The translations under genes were made by a program, and so were the position numbers. The notes beneath the pieces were generated by a model. The model saw nothing but the letters and a program-made list of their open reading frames with translations. It did no database searches and was not told where the DNA came from. From an uncultured Planctomycetota bacterium (lineage in GTDB: Bacteria; Planctomycetota; Phycisphaerae; Sedimentisphaerales; Anaerobacaceae), in the NCBI GenBank assembly GCA_963750205.1, contig CAVVRJ010000016.1:163400-227399 (forward strand): a stretch of DNA of 64,000 nt, written 5' to 3'. Below, one piece after another: positions 9,239-37,914 of this stretch. The stretch's first letter is position 1. Each line of letters starts with the position of its first letter.

Positions 9239-9457
9239 AATCACCAGCGACGCTCTTCGAACGACGGCCTTCCAAGGCAGCCCCAGGCCCAATTGGTCAG
9301 GCGGAATTCCCGACGAAGCTCTTTGAGCCAACGGGCCTGGACGTTACAATGGGCCTTTCGGCGCCGGAATCGAGGAAGCACGGTCAAACGAGTTTGGCTG
9401 TGCCACCCGTTTCGAGATGGACTGGCGCGGACGGGGTCTTGTACCACAGGATAGGAC

Positions 9458-10643: not shown

Positions 10644-10658
10644 GAAGTCTCAGGCATG

Positions 10659-10734
10659 CCATTGCGAGCGAAGCGAAGCAATCTCCCCTGCCGAGGATTG
10701 AGATTGCTTCGTCGCTGCGTCCTCGCAATGACAT
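10659..10734. repeat. ~76-nt imperfect palindromic element (family GGATTGAGATTGCTTCGTCGCTGCGTCCTCGCAATGACAT)
   Basis: ccattgcgagcgaagcgaagcaatctc ...loop... gagattgcttcgtcgctgcgtcctcgcaatgacat. Lies 16 nt after the COG1900 gene stop. The right arm recurs at 1..35 and 47666..47727. Confidence 0.65.
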
Positions 10735-10737
10735 TCC

Positions 10738-11181
10738 TTGGACCCCTTTGGGAAACCTGATATGAGTCCGACCGTAACGAAGAAACTGATGCTTTTCTTC
10801 CCGAAATGCGAGTGTGAGAAACCGATCATTTATCACCTGGTGAAGGACCACAACCTCATCGTGAACGTCTACCGGGCGAGGGTGACGCCGGAGGAAGAGG
10901 GCTACCTGGTTCTGGACGTGACGGGAACGGAGCAGGACATCGAGGGGGCGATGGACTTCGTGCGGACCTTCAACGTCACGATCAACACCACCGGCAAAGG
11001 CGTGACGTGGGACGAGCATCGCTGCACGCATTGCGGCCAGTGCCTCCCCCGCTGCCCGACCGAGGCCCTGCACTTCGCCGACGCGGGCACGCGCCGGGTG
11101 GTCTTCGACGAAGCGGAATGCATCGAGTGCCTGGCGTGCATCCGGGTCTGCCCCTTCAGCGCCTGCGCCTCGGCCTTTTGA
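10738..11181 (+). CDS. NIL-domain / 2x[4Fe-4S] ferredoxin partner of COG1900
   Basis: The N-terminal NIL-like domain is followed by CTHCGQCLPRCP and CIECLACIRVCP cysteine clusters. Confidence 0.65.
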   Translation: MDPFGKPDMSPTVTKKLMLFFPKCECEKPIIYHLVKDHNLIVNVYRARVTPEEEGYLVLDVTGTEQDIEGAMDFVRTFNVTINTTGKGVTWDEHRCTHCGQCLPRCPTEALHFADAGTRRVVFDEAECIECLACIRVCPFSACASAF

Positions 11182-11323
11182 TCCGGACCTGTCATGCGTG
11201 TGTCTTGTCATCCCTTCGGCAAGCTCGGGGCAGGCTCTGAACGGAGCGAAGCGCAGGGAAGGATCTGGCACGCGTATTTAAAACTCCTCCCATTCGCCGG
11301 CCAGATCCTTCGCTGCGCTCAGG

Positions 11324-12046
11324 ATGACAGAACACGACCCTATGACTGACACTCGCAGACGAACCTACCGCACCTTCACGCATCACGAAGCGGTCCTCCG
11401 CGTCTGCTGCGACCAGTTCGACGTGGTCGTGGCGGAGATCGTCCGCCAGCGGCGGATTCTCGAAGAGTACATCGCGCGCCAGCCCGAGTTCAAAACCGCG
11501 TTCGTGCCACTCGACTTGCGGGCCGATGCGCCGGAAGTGGCCCGGCGCATGGCTTGGGCGGCCCGGAGAGCCAATGTCGGTCCGATGGCCGCAGTCGCCG
11601 GCGCGATGGCGCAGCTCGCCGCGGAGGCCGCTCTGGCCGCCGGGGCCGAAGAGGCCATCGTGGATAACGGCGGCGATATCTATCTCAAAGCCGTCGAGCC
11701 GGTGATCGTCGCTCTCGGCACGGGCACCGCCAGGTTGGCCGACCGGCTGGCCTTTTCGGTCGAGCCGCAGGAGACGCCGGTCTCGATCTGCTCCTCCTCG
11801 GGCAAGATGGGTCACTCGTGGAGTTTCGGCCTGTGCGACCTGGCGACGATCGTCGCGAAGGACGCCGCCCTGGCCGACGCCGCCGCCACGCAGGCCGGGA
11901 ACCTCGTCAAGACCATCCGCGACGTGGACGCCGCCCTGGAGCGGATCATCGCCATTGACGGAGTGGACGGCGTCATGCTCGTCAAAGACGACCGCGTCGG
12001 CCTCGCCGGCCACCTGCCCCGCTTGGTCAAGACCGCCGGTTTTTGA
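11324..12046 (+). CDS. UPF0280 family (ApbE-like) protein
   Basis: A 240-aa protein with IVDNGGDIY and SSSGKMGHSWSFGLCDLATIVAKDAALADAAATQAGN motifs typical of UPF0280. The antisense 297-aa ORF is Arg/Gly-rich shadow. Confidence 0.5.
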   Translation: MTEHDPMTDTRRRTYRTFTHHEAVLRVCCDQFDVVVAEIVRQRRILEEYIARQPEFKTAFVPLDLRADAPEVARRMAWAARRANVGPMAAVAGAMAQLAAEAALAAGAEEAIVDNGGDIYLKAVEPVIVALGTGTARLADRLAFSVEPQETPVSICSSSGKMGHSWSFGLCDLATIVAKDAALADAAATQAGNLVKTIRDVDAALERIIAIDGVDGVMLVKDDRVGLAGHLPRLVKTAGF

Positions 12047-12116
12047 CTTGGCGATCCGTCTCCCTTGCGTTATTCTCGGGCACACATGGTGAGAGCATAT
12101 TCGTCGTGGTTCTGCT

Positions 12117-13019
12117 TTGGGAGACGGGAAAATGGAGACGATGCAATTCGAGCCGATGTCGGTGGGCCGGATCTTCGACCGGGCCTTCGCAATCTACCGC
12201 AACAACTTCCTGCGTTTCGTCACCATCGTGGCGATCATCGAAGTGCCCCTGGCGCTGTTCTCGATTGCCACCAGCTCGTGGACGGAAACGAGAGGGACGC
12301 CTCATCAGACCTTCTTCGAGCGAATGAAAGCCCTACAAGAAGACCCTCGCGCTGCAGCCGAGCGAGATACTCGGGACGACAAGGCACCCAGCCCCCTCGG
12401 CTTCGTGGGCCGAGGCATTACGGTCCTGCTGACGATGGTGGGAACCATGCTCTGCCAGGCGGCCCTGATCAAGAGCGTCTCGGAGACGTATCTGGGCCAT
12501 GAAATCACGATCGGGCAAGCCTACCGATTTGCTCTCCCGAAGTCAGTGACGTTGGTCTTGGCCACCCTCTGCGTCGGCTTGGTGACCGGGCTTGGATTCC
12601 TGCTGCTCATCATCCCCGGCGTGATCTTCAGCTTGTGGTTCTACCTCACCGCACCGGCCATTGTCGTGGAGAATCACTCGGTTGGCAATGGGATGTCGCG
12701 TAGCAAGGCCCTGGTCGGGGGCAATCTGGGCAAGGTCTTTGGCGTCATGTTTCTGGCCGTCCTCATGAACTGGGTCATCTGGATCCTGTTCCTTCTCCCG
12801 GAAAGTTGGATTAACAGGATGCTGCCGGCCGATAGCGCGACGTTTCGGTCGTTCGTGAGCTACCTCGGCGGCACGGTCAGCACGATCCTGACGATGCCGA
12901 TCGGCGCCACCGCTTCCATCCTGCTGTACTACGATCTGCGCATTCGTAAGGAAGGCTTCGATTTGCAGATGCTCGCCCAGAGCATGACCGGGGAGCAAGG
13001 GGACTTGCGTGCGGCTTAG
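12117..13019 (+). CDS. polytopic membrane protein (GP-PDE-membrane-domain/DUF975-like)
   Basis: N-terminus FDRAFAIYRNNFLRFVTIVAIIEVPLALFSIA plus 5-6 further hydrophobic segments. Lies immediately upstream of the DUF4129 gene. Confidence 0.4.
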   Translation: MGDGKMETMQFEPMSVGRIFDRAFAIYRNNFLRFVTIVAIIEVPLALFSIATSSWTETRGTPHQTFFERMKALQEDPRAAAERDTRDDKAPSPLGFVGRGITVLLTMVGTMLCQAALIKSVSETYLGHEITIGQAYRFALPKSVTLVLATLCVGLVTGLGFLLLIIPGVIFSLWFYLTAPAIVVENHSVGNGMSRSKALVGGNLGKVFGVMFLAVLMNWVIWILFLLPESWINRMLPADSATFRSFVSYLGGTVSTILTMPIGATASILLYYDLRIRKEGFDLQMLAQSMTGEQGDLRAA

Positions 13020-20800: not shown

Positions 20801-21964
20801 ATGTCTGACCGCGAAGGGAAGACTGCACAGCAAGGAGGCGCGGGTGTTTCGTCTTCGCATTTCCCAAGCCCGATGATGCACGGAGCTCATCGGAGACGAC
20901 CAGGTGACTTGAGCTCAATGACGCCCGTAGAGAGAACATCGACCGCGGCACGATTGCCCTACCCTCCGGAACTGGACGAGCCCCACGTCTTGGCGGACCG
21001 GATGATTCCCCAGATGCCGACGGAGCCGGCGACGCTGGCCATGCCCGCGCAACGGGTGGCGAGCATCGATCTGCTGCGGATTGTGGCGGCCGTGGGAATT
21101 GTCTGGTTCCACACGGACGGAGCGCCGTATAGCCAGATCGGCTATGCGGGGCTGCCGGTCTTCCTGCTGATCTACTTTTCCCTGATCACGAAGCAAAGCG
21201 GGGTACACACCACCCGGGAGTTTCTGCAGCGGCGCTGGGATCGACTGCTCCAGCCGTGGCTGTTCTGGTGGGTCGTCTATGGTCTGGGCAAAGTGGTCAA
21301 AGCCGCCTACAGCATGGATTTGAGCCCGGTCGAACGCATGCTCTCGCTGCAGACTCTTTTGGCCGGCACGTGCATTCATCTGTGGTACTTGCCCTATGCG
21401 TTCGCCTCGGGATTCTTGCTCTACCAGCTTAATCGCCGGATCGTGAGAGCCAACGACACGCTGGTCATCTTCGTGGCCACGGCTGTCGGCGCGCTCACGC
21501 TGGTAGCGTGCACCGTCAGCCTGCAAGCTTTCCGGCTGGCGCCTCCGTGGCCACAGTGGGAGTTTGGGCTGGCCGCTATTCCCCTGGGGTTGGCCGTGGG
21601 ACGGTCTCTGGCGGCCCCGTCGCGCCGGGCGCAGATGGAGCGTCTGGCCGTGATCTCCGCCGTGACTATAGGAGTCTCTCTGGTTCTGATCTCCCGGGTC
21701 CCCACCTCCGCGGCGTTTCCTTACAGTCTGGCCCTCGTGCTGGTATGCCTCGCCTACGGTTGCCCAGTGAGCGGCAATGGTTTCATCGCCGCCGTGGCGC
21801 CGCTGACCCTGGGGATTTACCTTCTTCATCCGCTGGTCATTGTCGCCTTGACGCGTTTCCTCCCGGCTTCCGGGAATTACCCCGCCTTCATCCTCCTCGC
21901 GGCCCTTATTTCCGCCACCGTCACCTGGGTCCTGATGCAAACACCCCTACGAAGGTTTGTCTGA
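20801..21964 (+). CDS. acyltransferase family 3 (OatA-like) membrane protein
   Basis: IDLLRIVAAVGIVWFH N-terminal signature and about 10 TM helices. True start is likely near 21040. Confidence 0.6.
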   Translation: MSDREGKTAQQGGAGVSSSHFPSPMMHGAHRRRPGDLSSMTPVERTSTAARLPYPPELDEPHVLADRMIPQMPTEPATLAMPAQRVASIDLLRIVAAVGIVWFHTDGAPYSQIGYAGLPVFLLIYFSLITKQSGVHTTREFLQRRWDRLLQPWLFWWVVYGLGKVVKAAYSMDLSPVERMLSLQTLLAGTCIHLWYLPYAFASGFLLYQLNRRIVRANDTLVIFVATAVGALTLVACTVSLQAFRLAPPWPQWEFGLAAIPLGLAVGRSLAAPSRRAQMERLAVISAVTIGVSLVLISRVPTSAAFPYSLALVLVCLAYGCPVSGNGFIAAVAPLTLGIYLLHPLVIVALTRFLPASGNYPAFILLAALISATVTWVLMQTPLRRFV

Positions 21965-22110
21965 GAGACTCTGAACCAGGCTTATCACGCCAGAATGGTC
22001 AAGCGGCACGTTCGCGCTGCTCGTATCATTCACCCCTGATGTCCCATTGAGGAAAAAATGTGTCACAGGGCTTGCCAGCAGTGACAACCATTGGTACACT
22101 ATTGACATGA

Positions 22111-22821
22111 TTGCCCCAGGAGGGTCAATCGCTGGAGGTTTGTACCATGCTTTCGGTTCGTGAGGCCGCAGAAGTACTGGGAATTTCCCAGAAGACCGTC
22201 TATCGCTGGATTCAAGACGGCCGGTTGCCGTCCCACCGTCTGGGGGGACAGCACTTCCTGGAACGGTCCGAGGTGAACAACCTGGTGATCCGGGAAGGGC
22301 TGCGTCCCCTGCCCGACACGGCGGACCAGACGGAGGACAACGAGGACATTTCCCTGCACGACATGCTCGTCAAGGGCGGGGTTTTCTATCGGATTAGTGG
22401 CTCGACCAAGAAAGATATCCTGCAAAATGCCCTGAACATGGTCAAGGGGGTGGATGAGAGCGTCTCGGGCCCCCTGTTCCAGATGTTCGTCGCGCGGGAG
22501 GAGCTGGCTTCCACGGGTATCGGGGACCACATCGCGATCCCCCACGCCCGGGGGTCGCTGGTCGGCTACATCAGCCAGCCGATTCTCTCGTTGTCATTCC
22601 TGGAGACGCCGATCGACTACGGCGCCCTGGATGGCAAGCCCGTATACGCCCTGTTCCTGCTGGTGTCACCCAACGTCCGCACACACCTGCGCATTCTGGC
22701 GCAGTTGTCGTTCTGTCTGCACGATCCGGAATTCAAGCAAGCGGTCTTAAGCCAAGCCTCACGGGAGGCGATTCTAAGTACTCTCGCGCAGACGGAAGCC
22801 CGTCTGCGCCGAGATTCATGA
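22111..22821 (+). CDS. HTH (excisionase/MerR-like) - PTS EIIA type-2 (EIIA-Ntr/PtsN-like) fusion regulator
   Basis: N-terminus LSVREAAEVLGISQKTVYRWIQDGRLPSHRLGGQHF (HTH_17). The C-terminal EIIA-2 domain carries the phospho-His motif GDHIAIPHARG. RBS GGAGG at 22134; likely start ATG at 22147. Stop overlaps the next start (ATGA). Confidence 0.7.
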   Translation: MPQEGQSLEVCTMLSVREAAEVLGISQKTVYRWIQDGRLPSHRLGGQHFLERSEVNNLVIREGLRPLPDTADQTEDNEDISLHDMLVKGGVFYRISGSTKKDILQNALNMVKGVDESVSGPLFQMFVAREELASTGIGDHIAIPHARGSLVGYISQPILSLSFLETPIDYGALDGKPVYALFLLVSPNVRTHLRILAQLSFCLHDPEFKQAVLSQASREAILSTLAQTEARLRRDS

Positions 22822-24845
22822 AAGACCGCGGCATGGAAGTATTCATCCTGGGTTGCCTCATTCCGATTGTGCTGGGCGCCGGCGTTCTTGGCATCGGTCG
22901 TTCCAAGGCCGCCCCGTGGATCGCTGCCTTCGGCGTTTGGCTGGGCTGTGGGATCGTGGCGGTCCCAGTCATCGCGGCGTTCGCTGGGAGTGTCCCGGCG
23001 CCGCTGCGGGCCGCCTGGAACGTTCCCGGCGGATCGCTCACCTTCGCACTGGACGGGCTTTCGGCTTTCTTCTGCCTGCCGATTCTGGTCGTGTCACCGC
23101 TGGCGGCGCTCTACGGCTGCCAATACCTGGCTCACGAGAAGAAGCCTCTGGGGCCGGCGTCGCTCTTTTATAACGTGCTGACAGCCAGCATGCTCCTGCT
23201 CCTGGTCGCCCGCAATGGCCTGCTGTTTCTGGTCATTTGGGAGGTCATGGCGATCAGCTCGTTCTTCCTTGTCGTTTTCGACGATGAGCACGCCCACGTG
23301 CGTCAGGCGGGCTGGACCTACCTGATCGCCGCTCACGTTGGGACAGGGGCCCTGCTGGTGATGTTCGCTCTCTTGGGCGGGCAGGCGCACTCGCTGGATT
23401 TCGATCTGATGGCGAAGGCCGCCTTGTCCCCCACGATGGCCACCATCCTCTTCATCCTGGCCGTGATCGGGTTCGGCACAAAGGCCGGCTTCATCCCGCT
23501 GCACGTTTGGCTGCCGGAAGCGCATCCGGCCGCTCCGAGCCATGTCTCGGCGCTGATGTCCGGTGTGATGATCAAAACAGGCATCTATGGCCTGTTACGC
23601 ATCGTGACGATGCTGGGCCACCCCTCGGCGGCCTGGGGTTGGACGCTGGTAATTATCGGACTGGTCTCGGGCATCCTCGGCGTGGCCTTTGCCCTGGCCC
23701 AGCACGACCTCAAGCGGCTCTTAGCCTATCATAGCGTCGAGAACATCGGCATCATTGCCTTGGGCATTGGTGCAGGTCTCCTGGGAATCAGTTGGAACCA
23801 GCCTGCGCTGGCGGTGCTCGGCTTCGGAGGCGGCATCCTCCACGTGCTCAATCACGCGGTCTTCAAGAGCCTGCTCTTCCTCGGGGCGGGCGCGGTGGTC
23901 CACAGCACCGGCACGCGGGACATCGACCACCTCGGCGGCCTGATCAAGTCGATGCGCTGGACCGCCGTAACGTTCGTCATTGCCTCTGCGGCCATCTCCG
24001 GATTGCCCCCGTTCAACGGATTCATCAGCGAGTTCCTCATCTACGTCGCCGCTTTCACCGGCGTGCAGGCCGGAGCCGCCGGGACAGTAATCCTGGCCAT
24101 CGTGATCGGGGCCGGCCTGGCAATGATCGGCGGTCTGGCCGCGGCCTGCTTCGCCAAAGCGTTCGGCATCGTCTTCCTCGGCGAGCCGCGCAGCTCGCAT
24201 GCGACCCACGCCGAGGAGGTAGGAGCTGCGATGCGATGGCCCATGGCCGTACTCGCCGCGGCCTGCCTCGGCATTGGCCTGTTCGCCCCGGCCGTGGTGA
24301 AGATCGTTCTCCCCGCGGTCCGCGTCGTTTGTAGTGTGCCCCTAAGGGCATTTGAAGAAACGCCTGACGGCGTCACTACGGACGCGCCTGTGGCAACGGC
24401 CCTGGGGAGCTTGACCAGTATCGTGCATGTATCTGCTGCGTTGCTCTTGCTGGCGCTTGGGCTCCTGCTCGTCCGCCGCTATCTGCCGCGTGGCAAAGAG
24501 GAGACGGCCACGGGAACCTGGGACTGCGGCTACGCCCGGCCGACGCCGCGCATGCAATACACCGCCTCGTCCTTCGCACAACCCCTGACAGATCTGTTCC
24601 AGATCTTCCTGGGGACGCGCAAGCACGGCGCTGCCCTGAGCGGCTTCTTTCCGCCGCGGACGACGTTCGAGACCCACACACCGGATGCGGCCCGCGAGTA
24701 TCTGTTCGCCCCGCTGTTCAAGCTGATCGACCGGGCACTGTCCCCGATCCGCCGGATGCAGCATGGACGCATTCACGAGTACCTGCTCTATATTGCCCTG
24801 GTCCTGATACTGCTGCTCATCTGGAAGGCGGGAGGGCGATCATGA
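22818..24845 (+). CDS. NuoL/HyfB-like proton-translocating antiporter-type membrane subunit (EhrA/HyfB-like)
   Basis: A 675-aa polytopic protein with MrpA/NuoL signatures (GWTYLIAAHVGTGALLV..., HSVENIGIIALGIG). Confidence 0.7.
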   Translation: MKDRGMEVFILGCLIPIVLGAGVLGIGRSKAAPWIAAFGVWLGCGIVAVPVIAAFAGSVPAPLRAAWNVPGGSLTFALDGLSAFFCLPILVVSPLAALYGCQYLAHEKKPLGPASLFYNVLTASMLLLLVARNGLLFLVIWEVMAISSFFLVVFDDEHAHVRQAGWTYLIAAHVGTGALLVMFALLGGQAHSLDFDLMAKAALSPTMATILFILAVIGFGTKAGFIPLHVWLPEAHPAAPSHVSALMSGVMIKTGIYGLLRIVTMLGHPSAAWGWTLVIIGLVSGILGVAFALAQHDLKRLLAYHSVENIGIIALGIGAGLLGISWNQPALAVLGFGGGILHVLNHAVFKSLLFLGAGAVVHSTGTRDIDHLGGLIKSMRWTAVTFVIASAAISGLPPFNGFISEFLIYVAAFTGVQAGAAGTVILAIVIGAGLAMIGGLAAACFAKAFGIVFLGEPRSSHATHAEEVGAAMRWPMAVLAAACLGIGLFAPAVVKIVLPAVRVVCSVPLRAFEETPDGVTTDAPVATALGSLTSIVHVSAALLLLALGLLLVRRYLPRGKEETATGTWDCGYARPTPRMQYTASSFAQPLTDLFQIFLGTRKHGAALSGFFPPRTTFETHTPDAAREYLFAPLFKLIDRALSPIRRMQHGRIHEYLLYIALVLILLLIWKAGGRS

Positions 24846-25756
24846 ACGCGATGCGCTGGGCACTGCCGTTGACCGCCTGGGTTCTCGCGCCCCTGATGCT
24901 CGGCGATCATCAACCGGGTGAAGTCGTTCTTCGCCGGCCGCCGTGGCCCTTCCGTGTGGCAGCTCTACTACGATCTCTTCAAGCTGCTGCAAAAGGGCTC
25001 AGTCTACAGCCGCTCGACGAGCACCGTGATTCGCCTCGGCCCGTCGGTGGTGCTGGCGTGCATGGTCCTGGGCACAACGATGCTGCCCTGGGGCGAATTG
25101 CAGGCTCCTGTGACGTTCCTCGGGGACATCATTCTGTTGGCCTATCTCCTGGGCCTGGCCCGTTTCGTCACCGTGCTGTCGGCCCTCGACACGGGATCGA
25201 GCTTCGAGGGCATGGGCGCCAGCCGCGAGGTCCAATTCGCGGCCTTGGCCGAGCCGTCGTTCTTCCTGGGGATGCTGGTCCTGGTGCTCCATTTCGGGTT
25301 CTCGGGCCTGTCGAAAATGGTCTCGGAGATCTCGTTCGAGACCTGGCAGACCTCCGGCGTGCTCCTGATTCTGGTCGGCTGCTCCTGGTTCGTCCTGCTG
25401 CTGACGGAGAACTCGCGCATCCCGGTTGACGATCCCAACACGCACCTGGAGCTGACGATGATCCACGAGGTCATGGTGCTCGACTACGGCGGGCCGGACC
25501 TCGCGTTCATCCTGTACGCCGCATCGTTGAAAATGTGGATCTTCGCCGCCCTGGTCGTGAATCTCGTGGTCCCCATGCACTCCCTGACGCCCTGGCTGCA
25601 GCGCCGATCTTCCTGCTGGGCATGGTCTTCGTCATGGCCCTGGTGGGCGTCGTGGAGTCCATCTTGGCCCGGCTGCGACTGAACCAGATTCCGAAAATCC
25701 TGATCGGCTCGGCGCTGCTGAGCTTGGTCGCCTTGATCGTTCGTTTGATGGGTTAG
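24842..25756 (+). CDS. NuoH/HycD-like membrane subunit (two apparent frameshifts)
   Basis: KSFFAGRRGPSVWQLYYDLFKLLQKGSVYS matches the HycD/HyfC N-terminal signature. Frames 24842, 24918..25682 and 25535..25756 are colinear. Confidence 0.6.
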
Positions 25757-25762
25757 CCAACG

Positions 25763-26437
25763 ATGACTGTTATTTCCGTCCTGCTCATCCTCTCGTGTCT
25801 ATGGCTGCTGGCGTCCAGCCGCCTGCACGTCGCGATCCGCGTGGTGGCGATCCAGGGCGTGCTGCTGGGCGTGCTTCCGATCGTCCGGTCGATGGGGGAC
25901 ATCGGCCTGGGCGTCGGGCTTCTGGGGCTGACCACGATCATCTCCAAGAGCATCCTGCTGCCGTGGCTGATGAATACGTGTTTGCGGCTTTCGGGGCTGC
26001 GGCGGGAGATCGAGCCCTTCATCGGTTTTGGCCCTTCGCTGCTCTGCGGCACGGCCCTGCTCGGGCTGGCCGTCTGGATCACCGACCGCCTGCAACTGAC
26101 CCAGGCCCAGGCCCCGCTCGTCCTGCTGACCAGTTCCTTCTTCGCGATGCTCGTGGGCCTCTTTCTCATGGTCACCCGACGCAAGGCCATCACCCAATCC
26201 CTGGCCTACTTGGTCATGGAAAACGGCGTTTACGGCGTCGGCGTCAGCCTGAGCCTGGACTTCCCGTTCATCGTGGAGCTCGGCATCCTGCTGGACGTCT
26301 TTGTGGGCGTGTTCCTCATGGGCAACCTCCTGTTCCATCTGGATCGAGAGTTCGAGCATCTCGACACGGATAAGATGACCGAGTTGTCCGATCTCTCGAA
26401 GCCGGCCGCGGCGGCACCGCTGGAGGAGAAGGCATGA
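25763..26437 (+). CDS. HyfE-like small membrane subunit
   Basis: A 224-aa polytopic protein in an operon position equivalent to HyfE. Confidence 0.5.
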   Translation: MTVISVLLILSCLWLLASSRLHVAIRVVAIQGVLLGVLPIVRSMGDIGLGVGLLGLTTIISKSILLPWLMNTCLRLSGLRREIEPFIGFGPSLLCGTALLGLAVWITDRLQLTQAQAPLVLLTSSFFAMLVGLFLMVTRRKAITQSLAYLVMENGVYGVGVSLSLDFPFIVELGILLDVFVGVFLMGNLLFHLDREFEHLDTDKMTELSDLSKPAAAAPLEEKA

Positions 26438-27901
26438 TGCTTCTGCTGCTGACGATCCTGCTGCCGGCAGCCGCAGGGACGGCCTCGTATTTCATTCGCC
26501 CCCACCATTGGCGGCGTTTTCTTTGGGGGGCTGTCGCCGCGGCGCATTTCACGCTGGCCGTCACGGCGGCGCTGACGATCACCGCCCCGCCGCTGGACCA
26601 TTGGATCGGCATGGATGCGCTCAGCGCGATCTTTCTCGTGTTGACGAGTCTGCTTTTCCTGGGGGCCACCGTGTACGGGATCGGCTACGTGGCCCGCGAG
26701 CCCGTGGCCGGGCAGACGGACTCCGAAGACGGCAGCCTCTTCAAGAACGAGCCCGAATCCGTCTTCACCGGCGCCCTGCTCCTGCTGCTGGCCGCCATGA
26801 CGCTGGCCATCCTGAGCCGGCATCTGGCCCTGCAGTGGGTGGCGATCGAAGCCACGACACTGGCCAGCGCCCCGCTGATCTACTATCACCAGAACCGCCG
26901 GTCGCTGGAGGCCGCCTGGAAGTACCTGATGCTGTGCTCGGTCGGCATCGCCATCGCCCTGCTGGGGATCTTTTTCCTCCGCATGACGATCCAGGACGGT
27001 CCTCACGACCTGACCCTGACCGCCCTGCTGGAGCGGGCCGGCACGCTGAACCACAAGTGGCTCGGCACGGCCTTCATCTGCATGCTGGTCGGCTACGGCA
27101 CCAAGATGGGCTTGGCCCCGCTGCACACGTGGCTGCCCGACGCCCATAGCGAAGCGCCGTCGCCGGTCTCGGCGCTGCTCTCCGGGGCCCTGCTCAATTG
27201 CGCTTTTCTCGGTATCCTTCGCGTGCAACAGGTTTGTGCGGCGGCGGGCATGGCCTCCTTCGGCGGCGACCTGCTGATCCTGTTCGGCCTGCTGTCGATG
27301 GGACTGGCCGGCGGCGTTCATCCTCCGCCAAACCGACTACAAACGCATGCTGGCGTACTCCAGCGTGGAGCACATGGGCATTCTGGCGCTGGGTGTCGGC
27401 CTGGGCGGGCTGGGGCTCTTCGGCTCGTTCCTGCACGCGGTCAATCATTCCGTCGTCAAGGCGATGCTGTTCTTCACGGCGGGCAACATCCTGTCCCGCT
27501 TCCATACCAAGGACACGACGAAGATTCAGGGAGCGTGTGACGCCCTGCCGATTTCCGGGGCCTTGTGGATCGCGGGATTCCTGGCCGTGACGGGATCGCC
27601 TCCCTTCGGGACATTCATCAGCGAGTTTACGATCTTGCGGGCGACCCTCGACCAGGGCCGGTGGGTGATCGCCGTGCTTTACGTGCTGTTTCTGCTGCTG
27701 GCGTTCGCCGGGATGTCGGGGATCGTGCTGCGGATGGCGCTGGGCAAATCCGAGGTGAACCGGGTCCGCGAGCCGGTCACGGCGGTCCTGCCGCCCATCG
27801 TCTTGGCGGTGCTGGCGCTGCTGCTGGGCGTGTATCTGCCCGGCCCGCTGGCGGACCGGCTGCACGAGGCCGCCCAACTGCTGGGAGGGATGGCGAAATG
27901 A
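26434..27901 (+). CDS. NuoN/HyfF-like antiporter-type membrane subunit (one apparent frameshift near 27320)
   Basis: ORF 26434..27540 (WLPDAHSEAPSPVSALLSGALLNCAF) continues in ORF 27347..27901 (MLAYSSVEHMGILALG...HAVNHSVVKAMLFFTAG). Confidence 0.6.
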
Positions 27902-29414
27902 TCACACTGCCGCAACTCCATAACGGCCAGGCCCTGCCTTTGAAGGACATTCCGGAACTCGCCGTGCCGGACTTTCGCGGCCTGATTCTGGAGCGGGTCC
28001 GCCGGGGCAGGCGGATTTCGTCGCTCTTCGGCATGCCGGACGGCGACCAGATCATGATTCTGGCGGTGCTGGCCCATGACAGCCAGGGCATGCTGGAACT
28101 GTGCCGCACGCGGGTCCGCGACCGGTATCCGGCCCTGACCCCCGATGTCCCCCAGGCCCACTGGTTCGAGCGGGAAATCGCCGAGCAGTGGGGCATCGTG
28201 CCGGAGGGACACCCGTGGCTCAAGCCCATCCGGTTCCACACTTCCTATGTCCCGAATCGCGATGCGTGGAGCCGGGACAAGGCGATGCCGATCGAGCCGT
28301 GGCGTCACCAACTACTTCCGCGTCGAGGGCGAGGAGATTCACGAGGTCGCGGTCGGTCCCGTGCACGCCGGCATCATCGAGCCGGGCCATTTCCGCTTCC
28401 AATGCCACGGCGAGAACGTCCTGCACCTGGAGATCGAGCTCGGCTACCAGCACCGGGGCATCGAGCGGGCCCTGGTCGGCGGCCCCGGCCCGCGCACGAT
28501 CCACTACATGGAGACGCTGGCCGGCGACACCACGATCGGGCACGCCACGGCCTACGCTTCGATCCTGGAGGCCCTCGGCGATGTGACGCCTTCGCCGCGG
28601 GCCCAGGCGATTCGCGCCATCGCGCTGGAACTGGAGCGACTGGCGAACCACACCGGCGATCTGGGCGCTCTTGGCCGGCGACATCGGGTTTCTGCCCACC
28701 GCCTCCTACTGCGGCCGGTTGCGGGGCGATTTTCTCAATATCACCGCCCTGCTGTGCGGCAATCGCTTCGGCCGCAACCTCATCCGTCCCGGCGGCGTGC
28801 GGTTCGATCCGACGCCGCAAACCGCGGACGATCTCTTGACCCGCCTGCAGACGACCTTCGAGTCCGTGCAGAACGCCGTGGATTTGCTGTGGGAGACGCC
28901 GTCGGTCATGTCGCGATTCGACGGGACCGGGACCGTTTCCCGGCAGGATGCCGCCCGGCTCGGCCTCGTCGGACCGGCGGCCCGCGCCGCCGGCGTCGAG
29001 CGTGATGTCCGCAGCGACCTGCCCTGGGGCATCTACCAGTCGCACGAGTTGCCCTCGGTCACGCTGCAAACGGGCGATGTCGCCGCCCGGGCGTACGTGC
29101 GCTGGTTCGAGATGCAAAAGTCCGTCGAGTTCATCAGCGACGTGACCCGCGCCTTGCCGGCGGGACCCGTTTTGCAGGAGGTCCCCCCGCCGGCGCAAGA
29201 GCATCTGGCGGTCGCTCTGGTGGAAGGGTGGCGGGGAGAAATCTGCCACGTTGCCGTGACCAACGAGCACGGCCGGCTGCGGCATTACAAAGTTACGGAT
29301 CCGTCGTTCCACAACTGGTTCGGATTGGCGCTGGCCCTCCGCCGCCAGCAGATCTCCGATTTCCCGTTGTGCAACAAGAGCTTCAACCTGTCCTATTGTG
29401 GACATGATCTGTAG
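27898..29414 (+). CDS. group-4 [NiFe]-hydrogenase large-subunit-like / NuoCD-like catalytic subunit, apparently lacking the N-terminal Ni-ligating CxxC (two apparent frameshifts)
   Basis: Three colinear frames (27898.., 28145..29005, 28671..29414). Motifs: GPVHAGIIEPGHFRFQCHGENVLHLEIELGYQHRGIE (GPxHP...GYxHRGxEK). Where HycE/EchE have ERxCGxCxxAHSTAY this protein has ETLAGDTTIGHATAY. The C-terminus FPLCNKSFNLSYCGHDL does not match DPCxxCxxR. Confidence 0.6.
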
Positions 29415-29417
29415 AAA

Positions 29418-29495
29418 GAATGGAATATTGGAAAGCTGAAAACGTTGGGATGACAGGGCGACCTGCCCAGTATTCCATGATTCCACTATTCCCTT
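29418..29495. promoter_or_regulatory. intergenic inverted array of TGGAAT (x2) ... ATTCCA (x3) hexamers between the large-subunit-like gene and the Fd/small-subunit gene
   Basis: agaaTGGAATATTGGAAag...cagTATTCCATgATTCCActATTCCC within an AT-rich 110-nt gap. Confidence 0.45.
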
Positions 29496-29523
29496 ATTAC
29501 AATTTACCTTAGAGGTTTGCGTC

Positions 29524-30564
29524 ATGTTGAGAATACTGCGGGCCAGGCTCAAACAGGGGTACCGCACGATCCGGTTTCCGGACCAGCCGCCGGTCCTGCC
29601 GGAGCAGTACCGGGGCCGGCCCCAGTGGGACGCCGGCAAGTGCACGGGCGACTGCACGGCCTGTGTTCAGGCCTGCCCTACCGGAGCCCTGAGCAAATCG
29701 AACGGTGCCGTGACCATCGACTTGGGCCGGTGCCTGTTCTGCACGGATTGCACGGACGCCTGCCCGACCCAGGCCATCCAGTTCACCGCGGAGTATCGTC
29801 TGGCGACCCGCACCCGCGAGGCGTTGCTCGTGGACCATCGTCCTTACGCACTGGCCCAGGCCTTGGACGAGAAAGCCCGCAAGCTCTTCGGCCGCTCGCT
29901 CAAGCTGCGTCAAGTCAGTGCCGGCGGCTGCAACGCCTGCGAAGCGGACACCAACGTGCTCAACACCGTCGGATTCGATCTGGGCCGCTTCGGCATCCAG
30001 TTCGTGGCTTCGCCGCGCCATGCGGACGGTCTCCTCGTAACCGGCCCGGTCCCGAAGAACATGGAGCTGGCCCTCAAAAAGACCTACGATGCCACGCCCG
30101 CCCCCCGGCTCGTGATTGTGGTCGGCGCCTGTGCGATTTCGGGCGGCGTCTTCGCCGGCCATCCGGAAGTGAACAACGGGGCCACGTCGATCGTCCCCGT
30201 GGACCTCTTCATCCCCGGCTGCCCACCCCACCCCATCACCATCCTCGACGGCCTGCTCCGCCTGCTCGGCCGGATTGAATGGACGTCGCCAACAACCCGC
30301 GTTTGTAGCGTAGCCCAGTACATGGGCATGTCAAGAAACGCATGGAACGGACAGTCACTGCAAGACACCTGCGTTTCGAAATGTCATCTTGCTGTGGTCT
30401 GCCTCGGTGAATTTGCCGTAATAGAACTCGGCTTTCAGGCCCAGATGAGAAAGAAGGCGATCGAATACCGCCGCGATCCGGTCCATATCTACACCCGGGC
30501 GATCTCGGAGCTCCGATGCGGGTCCGTCAGAAAGCCGGGAATCTTCTCCGCGAGCAGCCGGTAG
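29524..30564 (+). CDS. fused 2x[4Fe-4S] ferredoxin (HycF-like) + NuoB/hydrogenase-small-subunit-like (HycG-like) protein
   Basis: CTGDCTACVQACP and CLFCTDCTDACP clusters, then GGCNACEAD...VGACAISGG...IPGCPP (NuoB/HycG N2-cluster cysteines). The last 90 aa or so are non-homologous and overlap a convergent gene, so the true stop is probably near 30290. Confidence 0.6.
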   Translation: MLRILRARLKQGYRTIRFPDQPPVLPEQYRGRPQWDAGKCTGDCTACVQACPTGALSKSNGAVTIDLGRCLFCTDCTDACPTQAIQFTAEYRLATRTREALLVDHRPYALAQALDEKARKLFGRSLKLRQVSAGGCNACEADTNVLNTVGFDLGRFGIQFVASPRHADGLLVTGPVPKNMELALKKTYDATPAPRLVIVVGACAISGGVFAGHPEVNNGATSIVPVDLFIPGCPPHPITILDGLLRLLGRIEWTSPTTRVCSVAQYMGMSRNAWNGQSLQDTCVSKCHLAVVCLGEFAVIELGFQAQMRKKAIEYRRDPVHIYTRAISELRCGSVRKPGIFSASSR

Positions 30565-30868
30565 TAGATGCAGTCCTCGTGGTTGATCAGCACGGCCCGC
30601 TGACCGAGGGAAAGGCCCGGTGGATCAGCTCGAGCCGGTCCTTCATGAACTTGAATTCCTTGGGCAACCTCTCGGGATAGGCCAGCGCCCCCGCCCCGCC
30701 CCCTACGACCGTAGGAATGTACTGCCCCTTGGCCAAGCCCAGCTCGTTCTCGATGAACGGGACGAACGCCGTCTGAAGCCGGGGGTCGCCACAGTAGACC
30801 ACGGCCGCCTCCGGGTGGACATGCGGCAGCGCCTCGTACACGTTCGTGTTCCCTCCCGACTCGGACAT
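30489..30868 (-). CDS. hypothetical protein (about 126 aa, one apparent frameshift near 30610)
   Basis: MSESGGNTNVYEALPHVHPEAAVVYCGDPRLQTAFVPFIENELGLAKGQYIPTVVGGGAGAL... continues in another frame as GQRAVLINHEDCIYYRLLAEKIPGFLTDPHRSSEIARV. No family recognised. Confidence 0.3.
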
Positions 30869-31048
30869 AGCCCGGCCCTTTCAGGAGCCCGTCTGTCTCA
30901 TCGTCGTTATCTGGGTGGCCGCCAAGCCGGAAGGTCTTGGCGATGGCCTCTGCTTCGTGGCGACGGCGTCGGCCCTTGCGTCGCGAGGCCATCTTGGCCT
31001 CGCCTTATCCGCCTGTGGCATGTTTACCGCCCGAACAGCAAGGGCCAG

Positions 31049-31084
31049 GGTCCCCAAACGCAATCAGTTCGCGTTTGGGAACCC
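31049..31084. repeat. palindromic REP-like element, family CCCAAACGCG-N6-8-CGCGTTTGGG (copy 1, intergenic between convergent genes)
   Basis: ggtccccaaacgcaatcagttcgcgtttgggaaccc forms a perfect 9-bp stem. Confidence 0.7.
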
Positions 31085-31172
31085 ACGATGCCTTCGCCAC
31101 GAAGGAGCCGTCAGGCTTTCTTGCCGTCAAAAGGAGAGGCGGATTCTTCTTCAACAGGCGGCCGGGGCGACT

Positions 31173-32828
31173 TCAGTTCCACCGATTTGACTGCCGCCGG
31201 CTTGGTCTCGGCGATTTCGTGGTCAGGAGTTGCTCCAGCTCTTCGAGGCTGATCCCCAGCTTGCCCAGTAGCGGCTTGAGGTCGATGCCCTGGACCTTCA
31301 GGGCCGACAGGAACTTGAAGACGGTGTTGGGCACGATCGAGCTGAACTGGTCGAGTCCCCGGCCGTTGCCGCCCATGTCGATGATTCGCACCTCGTCGAT
31401 CTGGCCCAGCGGCGCCGCCACGCTCGAGAAGACCGAAGTCGCGACCTTGCTCATCGCATCGCCGCCGCGATCGAGCAGCAAGGGCAGCCGGTCGAGGATC
31501 AGGATCATCTTCGCGTCGGCCGACATCTTGGCCAGCGCCTCGGCGAGTTGCTTGGTGCCCTCGGCCTCCGCCTTGAGGACCATGCCCTTCTTGGCGGCCT
31601 CGCCTTCGGCCTGGGCCACCAGGGCCTGCTTGGTCTTGGCCGCTTCGCCTTCCGCCTGGGCGAGCATCACGGCCTTGGTCTTCGAGGCCTCGCCTTCGCC
31701 TTCGTAGACGCGGGCTTGTCTCTCGCCTTCCGCCCGGCGGATCGCGGCTTCCTTGGCCGCCTCGGCGTTGGTCACCGCCACCATCTTCGCGGCCTCCGCG
31801 TCGATCACTTGCTTGGACCGGTTGGCCTGGGCCAGCTTGACCACCGTGGCATCGAGCTCCTGCTCCTTGCGGGCGGCCTCTTTGCACTGGACCTCGATCT
31901 GGGCCTCCTTCTCCGCGGCGTCGCGCTCGGCCTGGCGAACCTTGAGCGTCTTTTCCTGCTCGGCCAGGGCAATGCCAAACGCCTGCTCGGCTTTGGCTCT
32001 TTCCGTGTCGGCGATAGCTTTGAACTGAGCCCTTTTCACGTCCCGGTCCCGCTCGGCCTGGGCCACTTGCACCGCGTTGCTGGCGACCTGGATATCCGCC
32101 TCGCGCGTGGCGTCGCTGACCTTCTTCTTGGTCTCCGCCTCGGCTTGGGCCGTCTTGATGTTGGCGTCCCGGATGGCCTCGGCGACCGACTGCTTGCCGA
32201 GGGCGTCAATGTAGTGAAACTCGTCCGTCACTTCCTGGATCACCAGCGTGATGATCTGGATGCCGAGCCGCCGGAGCTCTTCCGTGGATTCCTCGACCAC
32301 CTTCTTGTTGAAGGCATCCCGGTCCCGCAGAATCTCACTGATGTTCAGCTTGCCGATGATCGACCGCAAATGGCCCTGGAGGATGTTCCGGACGATCCGC
32401 GCCAGCTCGTCCTCGGTCTTGCCGAGGAAGGCGGCGGCCGCATTGTGGAGCGATTCCTGCGTCGTCTCGATCTTGTACGTCGCCACGCCCCGGGCGCTGA
32501 TCTTCACGTTGTCCTTGTTCGGGATGTCGTGCTCGTCGATCTCGACCTGGGAGACGCCCGTGGACATCGGCTGAAAATGCTCGACGATCGGCCACAGCAG
32601 CGCGCCGCCCCCGGCGACGACCCGGAAGCCCCGGTGCTGCATCTTCCCCTCGGCGTCCAGGTACTTGTACTTGCGGCCATAGAAGATGCCCACCTGGTTG
32701 GGCGGGATCTTCTTGTAGCGGCTGGCCATCGCCCAGACGACCACGATAAAGGCCACCGCGATCAGAAGGATCATCCCCGCGATCAACACGGAGCCACTCG
32801 TTTCGGCTATCAGCGGCAATGCGTTCAT
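31173..32828 (-). CDS. flotillin / SPFH (band-7) domain protein (YqiK/FloT-like)
   Basis: N-terminal TM segment, SPFH domain (QVGIFYGRKYK...) and a long Ala/Glu/Lys-rich coiled-coil. Confidence 0.8.
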   Translation of the reverse strand: MNALPLIAETSGSVLIAGMILLIAVAFIVVVWAMASRYKKIPPNQVGIFYGRKYKYLDAEGKMQHRGFRVVAGGGALLWPIVEHFQPMSTGVSQVEIDEHDIPNKDNVKISARGVATYKIETTQESLHNAAAAFLGKTEDELARIVRNILQGHLRSIIGKLNISEILRDRDAFNKKVVEESTEELRRLGIQIITLVIQEVTDEFHYIDALGKQSVAEAIRDANIKTAQAEAETKKKVSDATREADIQVASNAVQVAQAERDRDVKRAQFKAIADTERAKAEQAFGIALAEQEKTLKVRQAERDAAEKEAQIEVQCKEAARKEQELDATVVKLAQANRSKQVIDAEAAKMVAVTNAEAAKEAAIRRAEGERQARVYEGEGEASKTKAVMLAQAEGEAAKTKQALVAQAEGEAAKKGMVLKAEAEGTKQLAEALAKMSADAKMILILDRLPLLLDRGGDAMSKVATSVFSSVAAPLGQIDEVRIIDMGGNGRGLDQFSSIVPNTVFKFLSALKVQGIDLKPLLGKLGISLEELEQLLTTKSPRPSRRQSNRWN

Positions 32829-34746: not shown

Positions 34747-37700
34747 TTGCGGAGGGTCGAAATGAAATTGATGAACTGTCCAACCGGACTCTCTCGATTC
34801 ACGGTGCGCCTCGGCGTATTCGCGCTGCTCTGGGCGCTGGCCCCGCTCGCACAGGGCCAGTCGGTCGTGATCAATGAGTTCCTCGCCTCCAACCACCACG
34901 GCCTGCTCGACGGCGACGGGAATGCCTCGGACTGGATCGAGCTGTACAATGGCAGTTCGACAACCGTCGCTCTGGAGGGCTGGCACCTGACGGACGACGC
35001 GCGTAACCTGCGAAAATGGACCTTCCCGGCCGGCACGTCCCTGCCGACCGGCCATTACTTGGTCGTTTTCGCGTCGGCCCACGTGTCGCCCACCGGCGTC
35101 TACGTGGACCCCAAAGGCTATCTCCACACCAACTTCTCTCTCGACAAAGACGGCGAATACCTGGCCCTGGTTGCCCCCGACGGCACGGTCGTGCACGAGT
35201 ACGCCCCCAGTTTCCCGCCGCAGCAGATGGATGTTTCCTACGGGCTCTGGCAACGTGCGTACCGCTACTTCTCGCCCCCGACGCCGGGACAGCCCAATGG
35301 CGCGGGGTTCATCGGCCTCGTGGAGCCGACGACTCACAGCCGCCAGCGCGGATTCTACGATCAGCCCTTTGCGGTGCAGATATCCTGCAGCACACCCGAC
35401 GTACAGATTCGGTACACCCTGGATGGATCGGAACCGACGGAACAACGCGGCACCCTGTACGCCCCGAGCACGTCGATTCCTATCACGACCACCACGCTCC
35501 TGCGGTCCGTCGCTTTCAAGACCGGCTGGAAGACCGCGAGTGTTACGACGCACACCTATGCCTTCGTAAATGACGTCGCCCATCAGCCGGCCAATCCGCC
35601 CGGCTGGCCCAGCGACTGGGGCTACGATTCCGAGGTTCATGGCACCGTCCCGGCCGACTACGCCATGGACCCGCGCGTCGTCAACAACACGCTGCCGGGC
35701 TACTCCATCCGCACCGCCCTTCTCGATGTTCCCACGGTCTCGATCGCAATGCTGCCCGACGATTTCATCAGCCGGACCACCGGCATCTGGACCAATCCCC
35801 TCAGCCGTTGGGACCGCAAATGCTCAGTCGAATACATCCTGCCGGGAACCGGAGGACAGACGACAGAGGACGGAGGACGGACACCGGCTGGCGACGCTGC
35901 CCTCAGTTCTCCGTCTTCCGTCATCCAGAATGAGGGCTTCCAGTGCGACTGCCAGATCAAGATCCACGGCAATTCCAGCCGCCGACCCTACCGCATGCAG
36001 AAACACTCGTTCGCCCTGACCTTCACCAGCCTCTACGGCCCGGCGAAGCTCCACTACCCCCTGTTTCCCGGCTCGGACGTGGATGAATTCAACGAGCTCA
36101 TCCTCCGCGGCGGCTTCACCGATTCCTGGGCCCTCGTCTCGTGGGATGTCACGCGCTACCGCCCCAATGACGCCCAGTACATCCGCGACACCTGGATAAA
36201 GGAGAGCCTACGCGACATGGGCCAACCTTCCAGCTACGGCTCGTTCGCCCACCTTTATGTCAACGGCCTCTATTTCGGTCTCTACAACCTCACCGAGCGC
36301 GTGGACCAGGACTTCGTGGCCAGCCATCTCGGCGGAACACCCGAGGACTGGGAAATCAACGAGGACTTCGCGACCCCCGGCCCCCGCTGGAACACGATGA
36401 TGGCCCTCGATCCTTCCACCCGCGCCGGCTATACGCAGATGCAGCAGTATCTCGACCTGGAGAATTTCGCCGACTACTTCCTCCTGCACCTCTACGGCGA
36501 CGCGGAAGACTGGCCCTTCCACAACGGGTACGCCGCCGCCAACGCCAAGAGCGGCGACGGGAAGTTCCGGTTCTTTGCCTGGGACCAGGAGATCGTCCTG
36601 GATTATCACGGCCGGGCCGCCCAGCGCATCGACTCCACGGGCGGAGCCGGCGATGTCTTCCTGAAACTGCGGACCAGCGCGGAGTTCCGCCTCCTCTTCG
36701 CCGACCGGGTCTACAAGCATTGTTTCAACGACGGCGCCCTGAGCGTCGGCGTGTCGCAGCAGCGCGACCGCGAACGTCGCGAGCTGGATCGACAAGGCCA
36801 TCGTGGCGGAGTCCGCCCGCTGGGGCGACGTCAAGATGACCACGCCCTACGGCAGCACACTCCAGCAGCCCAACCCGCTCACCGACATCGACAACATCCT
36901 CTACCCGCCCGTCCCGCACGGTCCCAACTACTATTTCACGCGGGAAGACTCCTGGGTCGTCGAGCGGGATAACGTCATCAATAACTACATTCCCGCCATC
37001 CACAATACGGCCAACTCTTACGCCCTGATCCGGCTCCTGCGCACCAAGAACCTCTATCCGGACCTCGATCCGCCGACGCTGCTGGCCAACGGCGCGCGCA
37101 GCACGGGGGGCCGATCGTCGCGGGCGCCGTGTTGACGCTCGCCAATCCCAACGGGCGAGGCATCATCTACTACACCCTCGACGGCAACGACCCGCGTCCC
37201 TCCGGGGGCACTGCCGCCCCAGACACGACCAACACGTTCGTCGCCGAGCAGGCGGCCAAACGGGTTCTCGTCCCGACGAGCGACATCGGCTCCGCCTGGA
37301 GAAACGTCACCTACAACGACACGCTCTGGACCAGCGGCACCGGCGGCGTCGGGTACGACCAAGGGGTGGGTTATCAACCGTATTTCAGCATGGACGTCGG
37401 GTCGCAGATGTACGGCGTCAACGGCAGTTGCTACATTCGTATCCCGTTCACCCTGACCGCCGGCAACCTGCAGAACCTGACCACTTTGATCCTGCGGGTG
37501 CGATATGACGACGGCTTCGTCGCTTATCTCAACGGCGTCGAGGTGGCCCGGGACAAGTTCCTCGGAACGCCCCTGTGGAATTCCTTGGCCAATGACAGTC
37601 ACGCCCGCGAGGAGGCGGTGAGCTTCGTGGATTTCGATATCGCCCCCTTCATCGGTCTGCTCCACGCGGGTAACAATCTCTTGGCGATCCACGGCTTGAA

Positions 37701-37914
37701 CGCTTCCACGACCAGCTCCGATTTCCTGATCTCCGTGGCCCTGGTCAAGTCCGTGAGCGTTCCGAAAAGCGATCCGAGCCTCTCCCCCGACGCGGTCCTC
37801 TATACCGGCGCCGTCCCCTTGACCCAGACCACGCGGATCAAGACGCGCATCCTGGACAATGGCCAGTGGAGCGCATTGAACGAGGCGGTGTACGAGGTGT
37901 CGGCCCAGAACTGA
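34747..37914 (+). CDS. secreted CotH-family (atypical kinase-like) protein with N-terminal lamin-tail domain and C-terminal Fn3/CHB_HEX_C-like domain (two apparent frameshifts near 36790 and 37120)
   Basis: Signal peptide. LTD signature VINEFLASN...DWIELYN...LEGWHLTD. CotH-like core (CSVEYILPG...IKIHGNSSRRPYRMQKHSFALTF). Colinear continuation in frames 36803..37135 and 37129..37914. Confidence 0.55.

Follow-up and report, generated by a model that had tools for sequence, protein, structure and literature searches.

We analyzed a stretch of 64,000 nucleotides from an uncultured Planctomycetota bacterium (hereafter the window; positions 163,400 to 227,399 of contig CAVVRJ010000016.1), in which seven genes, all on the + strand and tightly packed between 22147 and ~30279, follow one another in the order R-ehrA-B-C-D-L-S according to Pfam and NCBIfam. 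The last six resemble the energy-converting-hydrogenase-related (Ehr) clusters, a name that reportedly goes back to Coppi 2005 and Marreiros 2013. The first, which we call R, encodes a helix-turn-helix (HTH) domain followed by an EIIA domain of the phosphotransferase system (PTS). Our comparison of many such loci indicates that no gene but R is consistently linked to the Ehr cluster, and the pairing may open a way to finding out what these complexes do.

Organization of the locus

R (22147..22821) encodes 224 aa with matches to the Pfam families HTH_17 (3.7e-14) and PTS_EIIA_2 (1.8e-24). A GGAGG lies 8 nt 5' of its ATG at 22147 and the R proteins of relatives also have 224 aa, which makes the TTG at 22111 an unlikely start. 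The next gene, ehrA (22833..24845, with an alternative in-frame ATG at 22818), encodes a NuoL/HyfB-like antiporter-type membrane subunit (Pfam Proton_antipo_M, 5.6e-52) that scores slightly below the cut-off of the NCBIfam model “hydrogenase 4 subunit B” (633 versus 667 bits). It is followed by ehrB (24842..25756), for a NuoH/HycD-like membrane subunit (Pfam NADHdh, 1e-26), and by ehrC (25763..26437), for a HyfE-like membrane subunit (NCBIfam “hydrogenase 4 membrane subunit,” 8.5e-20) that is 57% identical by tblastn to its homologue in L005 (here and below, L numbers designate related loci). Then come ehrD (26434..27901), for a NuoN/HyfF-like antiporter-type subunit whose Proton_antipo_M match is divided between two open reading frames (ORFs; profile positions 1-162 and 174-288), and ehrL (27898..29414), for a large subunit in which NuoC- and NuoD-type parts are fused (Pfam Complex1_30kDa and Complex1_49kDa). 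The cluster closes with ehrS (29524..30279), whose N-terminal half is a HycF/NuoI-like domain for 2x[4Fe-4S] (NCBIfam) and whose C-terminal half is a NuoB/HycG-like small subunit (Oxidored_q6 and Fer4 families in Pfam). This gene order and domain content agree with an earlier reading of the DNA letters and ORFs, hereafter the original prediction.

The junctions between the genes are short. ATGA overlaps are found at 24842, 26434, and 27898, and a gap of 6 nt separates ehrB from ehrC (25756/25763), all as originally predicted. A further overlap had been placed at 22818, between R and ehrA, and there the situation is ambiguous. The conserved N terminus of EhrA (MEVFILGC...) begins at 22833, 11 nt past the R stop, and close relatives (L009, 10672-10689; L001) have at this junction a 4-codon mini-ORF, ATG AAG GAC CGC TGA (MKDR*), which shares bases with the R stop and directly adjoins the ehrA start. 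At 22818-22835 of the window the stop of the mini-ORF is replaced by GGC, resulting in an in-frame fusion to ehrA. The mini-ORF may be a termination-reinitiation device. The R/ehrA overlap is not conserved, the spacing in relatives being about 0 to 130 nt; the earlier statement that R is co-translated with the respiratory module had been inferred only.

The longest junction is the spacer between ehrL and ehrS, which reads as 109 nt in the window (29415..29523), has 129 nt in L009, and has only about 3-11 nt in other clades. We rejected a structured RNA or an internal promoter in this spacer: it has no significant fold (z = -0.5) and no promoter-like site, and Rfam gave no match anywhere in the window, spacer included.

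R is a two-domain protein related to PtsN

The HTH of R is of the excisionase/MerR-like type (HTH_17, 53.2 bits versus a Pfam cut-off of 27; TIGR01764 “excise,” 53 versus 28.8). The C-terminal 140 aa have the PTS_EIIA_2 fold signature (86.8 bits versus a Pfam cut-off of 27) and resemble PtsN/EIIA(Ntr), including the His in (A/G)IPH, and the closest solved structures are all of PtsN (3urr, 4gqx, 2a0j, and 1a6j). This phospho-acceptor His lies within GDHIAIPHARG, and its motif, (A/G)(I/L/M)PH, as phosphorylated in PtsN, is kept in at least 95% of 51 members of the R family. R differs from PtsN by its additional N-terminal HTH_17 and by scores well below the equivalog cut-offs of the NCBIfam models (67.9 versus 138.7 bits for TIGR01419 and 46 versus 221 bits for NF008145); a fructose-type EIIA model of NCBIfam matches it as well as the PtsN model does. 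We detected 651 homologues of R, mostly two-domain proteins of 224-229 aa, the nearest with 94% identity, and the full scan comprised at least 122 clusters aligned over the full length at E<=1e-30. Both domains are retained in all 51 R proteins examined, in all variants of the locus. R belongs to a distinct two-domain family.

Distant R-like proteins were examined on two short contigs. In one of them (L092, 172-1100, 34% identity to R), the gene has a stop/start overlap with the next one, which encodes a SulP-family anion transporter; in the other, the gene is followed by a convergent one. Separately, L016 encodes a SulP transporter fused to a P-II-like domain (10323-12368) ~7 kb from its Ehr genes. 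Control by R-type regulators may extend to other ion-transport modules.

R is linked to Ehr clusters in many phyla

Nine metagenome loci with R proteins of 56-94% identity, including one on a 3.4-Mb Cloacimonadaceae contig, all have R followed by the same six genes. To extend this set, we scanned GTDB (one genome per species) by alignment of the large subunit and retrieved 80 loci, of which 57 were informative for R when searched with local hidden Markov models. The 80 loci come from Verrucomicrobiota, Planctomycetota, Desulfuromonadales/Geobacterales, Acidobacteriota, Spirochaetota, Cloacimonadota, Elusimicrobiota, Omnitrophota, Riflebacteria, Hydrogenedentota, Fibrobacterota, and others. In 43 of the 57 informative loci (75%), spanning at least 10 phyla, R adjoins the Ehr cluster or sits inside it. 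It leads the cluster on the same strand in 33 of them, including the cultured Geomonas limicola; it is internal in 7 (A-R-A-B-C-D-L-S, Verrucomicrobiota); and in 3 Geobacter-type loci (L037, L040, and L079) it is divergent and paired with an extra ehrA. The remaining 14 loci lack R (Geothrix/Holophagaceae, Riflebacteria, Elusimicrobia, and others). Among the flanking ORFs the largest family is that of a generic PAS histidine kinase, present in only 9 of the 80 loci, and we rejected a conserved electron-input neighbor (Fdh, NuoEF, or PFOR).

The adjacency of the HTH-EIIA and hyfB-like genes, which the original prediction had singled out for a check in related genomes, is thus widespread. The arrangement is no rarity of the window: a large family has it as its standard form, cultured Geomonas included, the R-Ehr pairing is already present in hundreds of public sequences, and our locus typifies a family that is known and widespread. 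As to the suspicion that an EIIA(Ntr)-HTH leader of such a complex was undescribed, we found in the literature that we searched no description of a link between R and Ehr, i.e., from EIIA or the PTS to Ehr.

Some loci depart from these arrangements. The Verrucomicrobiia operon of L083 has two copies of R, one after the first ehrA (3401-4282) and another between ehrD and ehrL (about 9270-9950), and in L016 the R gene (3-881) is immediately upstream of ehrL. Two loci have a second, more divergent A-B-C-D-L-S set adjoining the Ehr cluster (L040, 13236-20563; L062, 2193-9974). The large subunit of this second set scores about 350, compared with about 780, and the set is either a tandem paralogue or a true group 4 hydrogenase.

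Repeats at fixed positions upstream of R

A sigma-70-like promoter (TTGCCA-17 nt-TACACT, with a TG-extended -10) is predicted on the + strand at 22072..22100, 47 nt 5' of the R start codon. Neither strand has another promoter-like match within 21800-31200 (9.4 kb), and the -35/-10 arrangement of this one aligns in the relatives L001, L002, L004, and L009. Between the -10 box and the ribosome-binding site lies an inverted repeat, ATTGAC-17 nt-GTCAAT (22101..22129, arms at 22101-22106 and 22124-22129), to which we assign no strand. Its core, GAC...GTC, is kept in the same four relatives, and its flank shows one compensatory change, a T-A pair in the window versus a G-C pair in L004. The hexamer TGACAT is found at -44 in both the window and L009. 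The inverted repeat is a candidate operator for R or a candidate hairpin of the 5' untranslated region.

Other phyla have, at the corresponding position, tandem TGTCC boxes one helical turn apart, e.g., AATGTCCAAAAATGTCCAA. These follow the pattern TGTCC(A)-N4-5-(A/T)TGTCC, with a spacing of 10-11 nt, and stand 40-60 nt upstream of R in several phyla (L011, L012, L018, L019, L020, L025, L044, L047, L049, L063, and others). The hexamers TGTCCA/ATGTCC occur 26-27 times in 36 regions upstream of R, when 3.5 occurrences are expected (~8-fold, z about 12), and their distances from the start codon are fixed, at -43 and -53. Within the 3.1 Mb of sequence that we fetched, 16 of the 34 sites of the form TGTC[CAT]-N5-6-TGTC[CAT] are beside an R start. 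Such position-fixed repeats look like a putative autoregulatory operator.

How could R act?

We propose that R serves as a dedicated transcription factor and is probably autoregulatory. Through its HTH, it would bind the promoter-proximal repeats, that is, tandem boxes of TGTCC type in most phyla and, in the clade of the window, the ATTGAC/GTCAAT inverted repeat. Phosphorylation of the EIIA His by HPr~P or NPr~P would then switch DNA binding, which would tie the expression of Ehr to the phosphoenolpyruvate (PEP)/pyruvate or carbon-nitrogen state. A bolder version of this idea has R placing a complex-I-like ion-translocating oxidoreductase under direct PTS control in at least 10 phyla, with R perhaps gating the NuoL-like subunit as well, by analogy with EIIA(Ntr) and K+ transport; we put it forward tentatively and would not favor it as it stands.

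The best surviving alternative is that R acts mainly by protein contact, as a PtsN-like partner of EhrA that gates ion translocation or assembly, the HTH being secondary. E. coli EIIA(Ntr) binds TrkA and KdpD. The genomic arrangement would fit such a role: R is nearly always directly upstream of the antiporter-like A gene, the R-A pair holds together even when it is divergent from the rest of the cluster (as in L037, L040, and L079), R is internal in the operons of Verrucomicrobiota and has two copies in L083, and the short R-A spacing of many loci favors stoichiometric co-expression. We find it unlikely as the main mode of action, given the full HTH_17 in all 51 examined proteins and the conserved, position-fixed DNA repeats upstream of R. 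The distant R-like paralogue preceding a different gene, that of the SulP transporter, is also what one would expect in a family of transcription factors. The roles of R as transcription factor and as contact partner are compatible, and both could be true.

Interrupted reading frames: errors or decay?

The original prediction overlooked five frameshifts, and the NuoH-like, NuoN-like, and large-subunit genes are not intact ORFs. In the ORF list, ehrB, ehrD, and ehrL are each spread over two or three frames, with breaks that we placed by tblastn with an intact homologous set. Nucleotide alignments with L009, which is intact and 83% identical, and with L001 reveal single-base indels in ehrB (+1 at ~24905 and -1 at ~25600), ehrD (+1 at ~27312), and ehrL (+1 at ~28301 and +1 at ~28669). 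A model of codon-position GC finds all five and predicts similar frame switches elsewhere in the window. A lost stop had been missed too. The end of the small-subunit ORF was set at 30564, where the ORF indeed extends because the TAG of L009 and L001 at 30277-30279 is TGG in the window, a substitution and not an indel. The homologous protein ends at 30276 and the coding signal stops at 30275. The read-through amounts to 95 extra codons and enters the 3' end of a convergent gene (30489-30992).

Similar interruptions are found throughout the window, so that its whole length stems from an error-prone assembly or else from a genome in which recent frameshifts are numerous. At least six unrelated genes are also frameshifted, as shown by their translations and Pfam matches. 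Each is divided among ORFs that overlap in different frames. They are the genes for a carboxylesterase (81-1705), GH106 (1748-3549), a CE15 glucuronyl esterase (4142-5454), a CotH-like protein (34747-37914), a GH36-like protein (59259-61598), and HcyBio (9458-10643), the last with 1 additional nt at 10068 when compared with L009 and L001. A putative glycosidase-like gene (53417-54921) is apparently split too. Fragmentation of a similar kind affects other long-read-style assemblies of the Ehr family (L001, L021, L027, and L077). Correcting the five indels of the operon gives proteins of 304 aa (EhrB), 488 aa (EhrD), and 504 aa (EhrL) with no internal stops, and the corrected EhrL has the family-invariant residues at the positions checked. 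The interrupted genes have a ratio of nonsynonymous to synonymous substitution rates (dN/dS) of 0.09-0.13 relative to L009, no different from that of the intact operon genes and the flanks; it is 0.12 for ehrB and 0.11 for ehrD and ranges from 0.09 to 0.19 across all operon genes.

Because frameshifts are window-wide, dN/dS is low, and the assemblies of relatives are similarly broken, the most likely source of the five frameshifts and of the lost stop is an error-prone assembly or sequencing and not decay of the operon. It could be argued that the cluster is instead a decaying, non-functional pseudogene operon in which these lesions are real mutations. They are, after all, five indels and one stop loss within 8.4 kb, when the 5.8 kb of flanks comparable with L009 hold one indel only, and the indels are mainly insertions that do not lie in long homopolymers. 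We hold this to be improbable and rejected an operon-specific pseudogenization as the leading interpretation: besides the split genes elsewhere in the window and the comparably fragmented assemblies of relatives, a dN/dS of 0.09-0.12 in the interrupted genes and the recovery of full-length, stop-free proteins with their invariant residues are hard to reconcile with decay. Hence, apparently clean descriptions of operons can mask frameshift-ridden long-read assemblies.

An Ehr complex without the ligands of a hydrogenase

If the lesions are assembly errors, what kind of complex does the operon encode? The best solved relative of EhrL is E. coli HycE (7z0s_E, 1.5e-49), followed by T. thermophilus Nqo4 and P. 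furiosus MbhL. At the positions of the four Ni-Fe cysteines of HycE, EhrL has other residues (C>A, C>T, C>S, and C>G), the corrected protein reading ETLAGDTTIGH and, at its C terminus, NLSYCGHDL. A Cys at any of these positions is found in 0 of 75 Ehr large subunits from many phyla, which have A/S/G, T/S/A/V, S, and G instead. The canonical quinone-site residues of complex I are also absent, because Tyr87 and His38 of Nqo4 align with Gly209 and Ile160 of the Ehr large subunits, both of which are family-invariant. EhrS keeps the four Cys of the proximal [4Fe-4S] cluster, aligned with those of MbhJ and HycG; its solved relatives are MbhJ (1.9e-32), HycG (1.3e-27), and HycF (4.9e-17). EhrA and EhrD both show the motifs WE... 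and G(T)K...PLH.WLP(E/D)AH, which we take, by analogy with NuoL/M/N, to hold the Glu of transmembrane helix (TM) 5 and the Lys of TM7.

The 75 Ehr large subunits share other cysteines, C169, C271, C286, C449, C491, and C500 in the numbering of L009, of which five to six are (nearly) invariant. None of them corresponds to a NiFe ligand, HycE has no Cys at the same positions, and C500 falls between what were once the two C-terminal ligand positions. Invariance extends to G209-D210, H156, H164, and H215. These residues may mark a different cofactor or redox-active site.

As far as sequence can tell, the locus is an Ehr cluster that has every feature by which such clusters can be defined. Its large and small subunits are homologous to those of group 4 [NiFe]-hydrogenases and to NuoD-NuoB, both CxxC NiFe motifs are lost, a NuoH-like gene (NADHdh) and two Proton_antipo_M genes are present, and the order is ehrA-B-C-D-L-S. 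The assignment made originally, i.e., of Ehr type and not a classical formate hydrogenlyase (FHL), stands. A formate hydrogenlyase or Hyf would have the four Ni-Fe cysteines and linked genes for FdhF, HycB/HyfA, and Hyp/HycI. We found neither these cysteines nor, among the roughly 40 larger ORFs of the window that were scanned, any fdh, hycB, hyp, or PTS genes, in line with the earlier statement that the first three are missing. A respiratory complex I would have the Tyr87 and His38 of Nqo4 and a NuoEFG input module, and no NuoE, NuoF, or NuoG is nearby. A genuine group 4 [NiFe] hydrogenase (Hyf/FHL-2-like) with partner genes elsewhere in the genome, as might be imagined from HycE being the best solved relative, from a subunit set equal to HyfB, C, E, F, G, and H+I, and from the Joint Genome Institute label “Ni,Fe-hydrogenase III large subunit” on relatives, is scarcely credible when the NiFe positions are non-Cys in 75 of 75 relatives, when hyp, hycI, fdhF, and hycB are neither among the window ORFs scanned nor conserved in the flanks of the 80 loci, and when such complexes are regarded as non-hydrogenases in the literature (PMC6349859, PMC12342949).

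Relation to known systems

The closest known system is the Ehr complex of Geobacter (PMC7894505, PMC6349859, PMC12342949). In the entries of the PMC7894505 supplement that concern this region, ehrA-1, B, C, D, L, and S of G. sulfurreducens are GSU0739-0745, ehrA-2 is GSU0734, and GSU0736 is an mRNA interferase. The order of NuoL-like, NuoH-like, HyfE-like, HyfF-like, large-subunit, and small-subunit genes is the same as in the window, the NiFe ligands are lost in both, and EhrL of the window is 55-65% identical to its homologues in Geobacteraceae/Geomonas. The window differs in having a single NuoL-like gene, when many Desulfuromonadales have two (ehrA-1 and ehrA-2), and in having R first and on the same strand, when the R-ehrA pair can be divergent in Geobacter-type metagenome-assembled genomes.

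The likeness to E. coli FHL and hydrogenase-4 (HycCDEFG, HyfBCEFGHI; 7z0s) extends to the EPGHFR motif and to the types of membrane subunits. The window lacks their NiFe cysteines and has no FdhF, HycB, HyfA, or maturation genes nearby, and it has HycF-like and HycG-like parts fused into a single protein. Compared with the Q-module of complex I (NuoB, C, D, H, and I, plus NuoL and N), the subunits are homologous and the NuoB-type ligands and the antiporter Glu/Lys motifs are shared, but NuoE, F, and G and the canonical quinone-site residues are missing.

A proposed mechanism and its weak points

We favor, with a probability of roughly 0.6, a reading in which the locus encodes an Ehr oxidoreductase with a ferredoxin-type donor and ion translocation, R is a PTS-switched autoregulatory transcription factor, and the lesions are assembly errors. 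Electrons from a low-potential donor, most simply ferredoxin, would pass along a wire of three Fe-S clusters (2x[4Fe-4S] and the NuoB-type cluster) to a non-hydrogen acceptor site at the EhrL/EhrS/EhrB interface. The transfer would be coupled to ion translocation through EhrA and EhrD, and the reaction could possibly be reversed. Ferredoxin is only the simplest guess for the donor, because no electron-input gene is conserved beside the cluster.

Several observations count against this scenario and should temper it. Clustering of 607 flanking ORFs from the 80 loci revealed no conserved electron-input partner, and activity, donor, and acceptor are known for no Ehr (PMC12342949, PMC10284858). Searches of the window and of the 80 flanks gave no gene for HPr/NPr or EI with hand-typed query sequences. 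Tandem TGTCC boxes are missing from the clade of the window, whose inverted repeat might just as well form an RNA hairpin. R lies within the operon of some lineages (A-R-A-B-C-D-L-S; D-R-L-S), a position uncommon for a classical repressor. Finally, the density of frameshifts in the operon (5 in about 8 kb) is ~2 times that of the rest of the window, with a Poisson p of about 0.07-0.2 by hand estimate, which leaves some weight to a recent real inactivation.

The window teaches nothing new on the enzyme itself. What is new is the linked HTH-EIIA protein, its kept His, and the position-fixed repeats before R. Ehr has been found in Geobacter, Nitrospira, Planctomycetota, Verrucomicrobiota, candidate phyla, and many others, repeatedly with the mention “function unknown,” and Ehr complexes are described as non-hydrogenases without known function (PMC6349859, PMC10284858, PMC12342949, 10.1101/765248). 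Ehr subunits of Geobacter are more abundant on formate (PMC7894505). If true, the R-Ehr pairing and the TGTCC operator would provide a first experimental handle on the physiological role of Ehr. If R responds to PTS phosphorylation, the conditions that induce Ehr would become predictable and testable in tractable Geobacteraceae, narrowing the search for the substrate.

Other genes of the window

Upstream of the operon, at 9458-11177, the split HcyBio gene (PF01837) is followed by one for a NIL+ferredoxin protein. We take the two to be the methanogen-type pair for homocysteine biosynthesis. Lying about 11-12.7 kb before the R start, the pair shows conserved synteny with L001 and L009. Between 12117 and 19488, the + strand encodes DUF7847, DUF4350, a MoxR-type AAA_3 ATPase, and DUF58, and the - strand encodes SpoIIM-like and RDD-family membrane proteins; this cluster stands where L009 has a Ser/Thr-kinase-WD40 gene. 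Downstream, two genes for ABC-F type ATPases (double ABC_tran with ABC_tran_Xtn) lie less than 6 kb apart, at 41718-43613 and 47775-49487.

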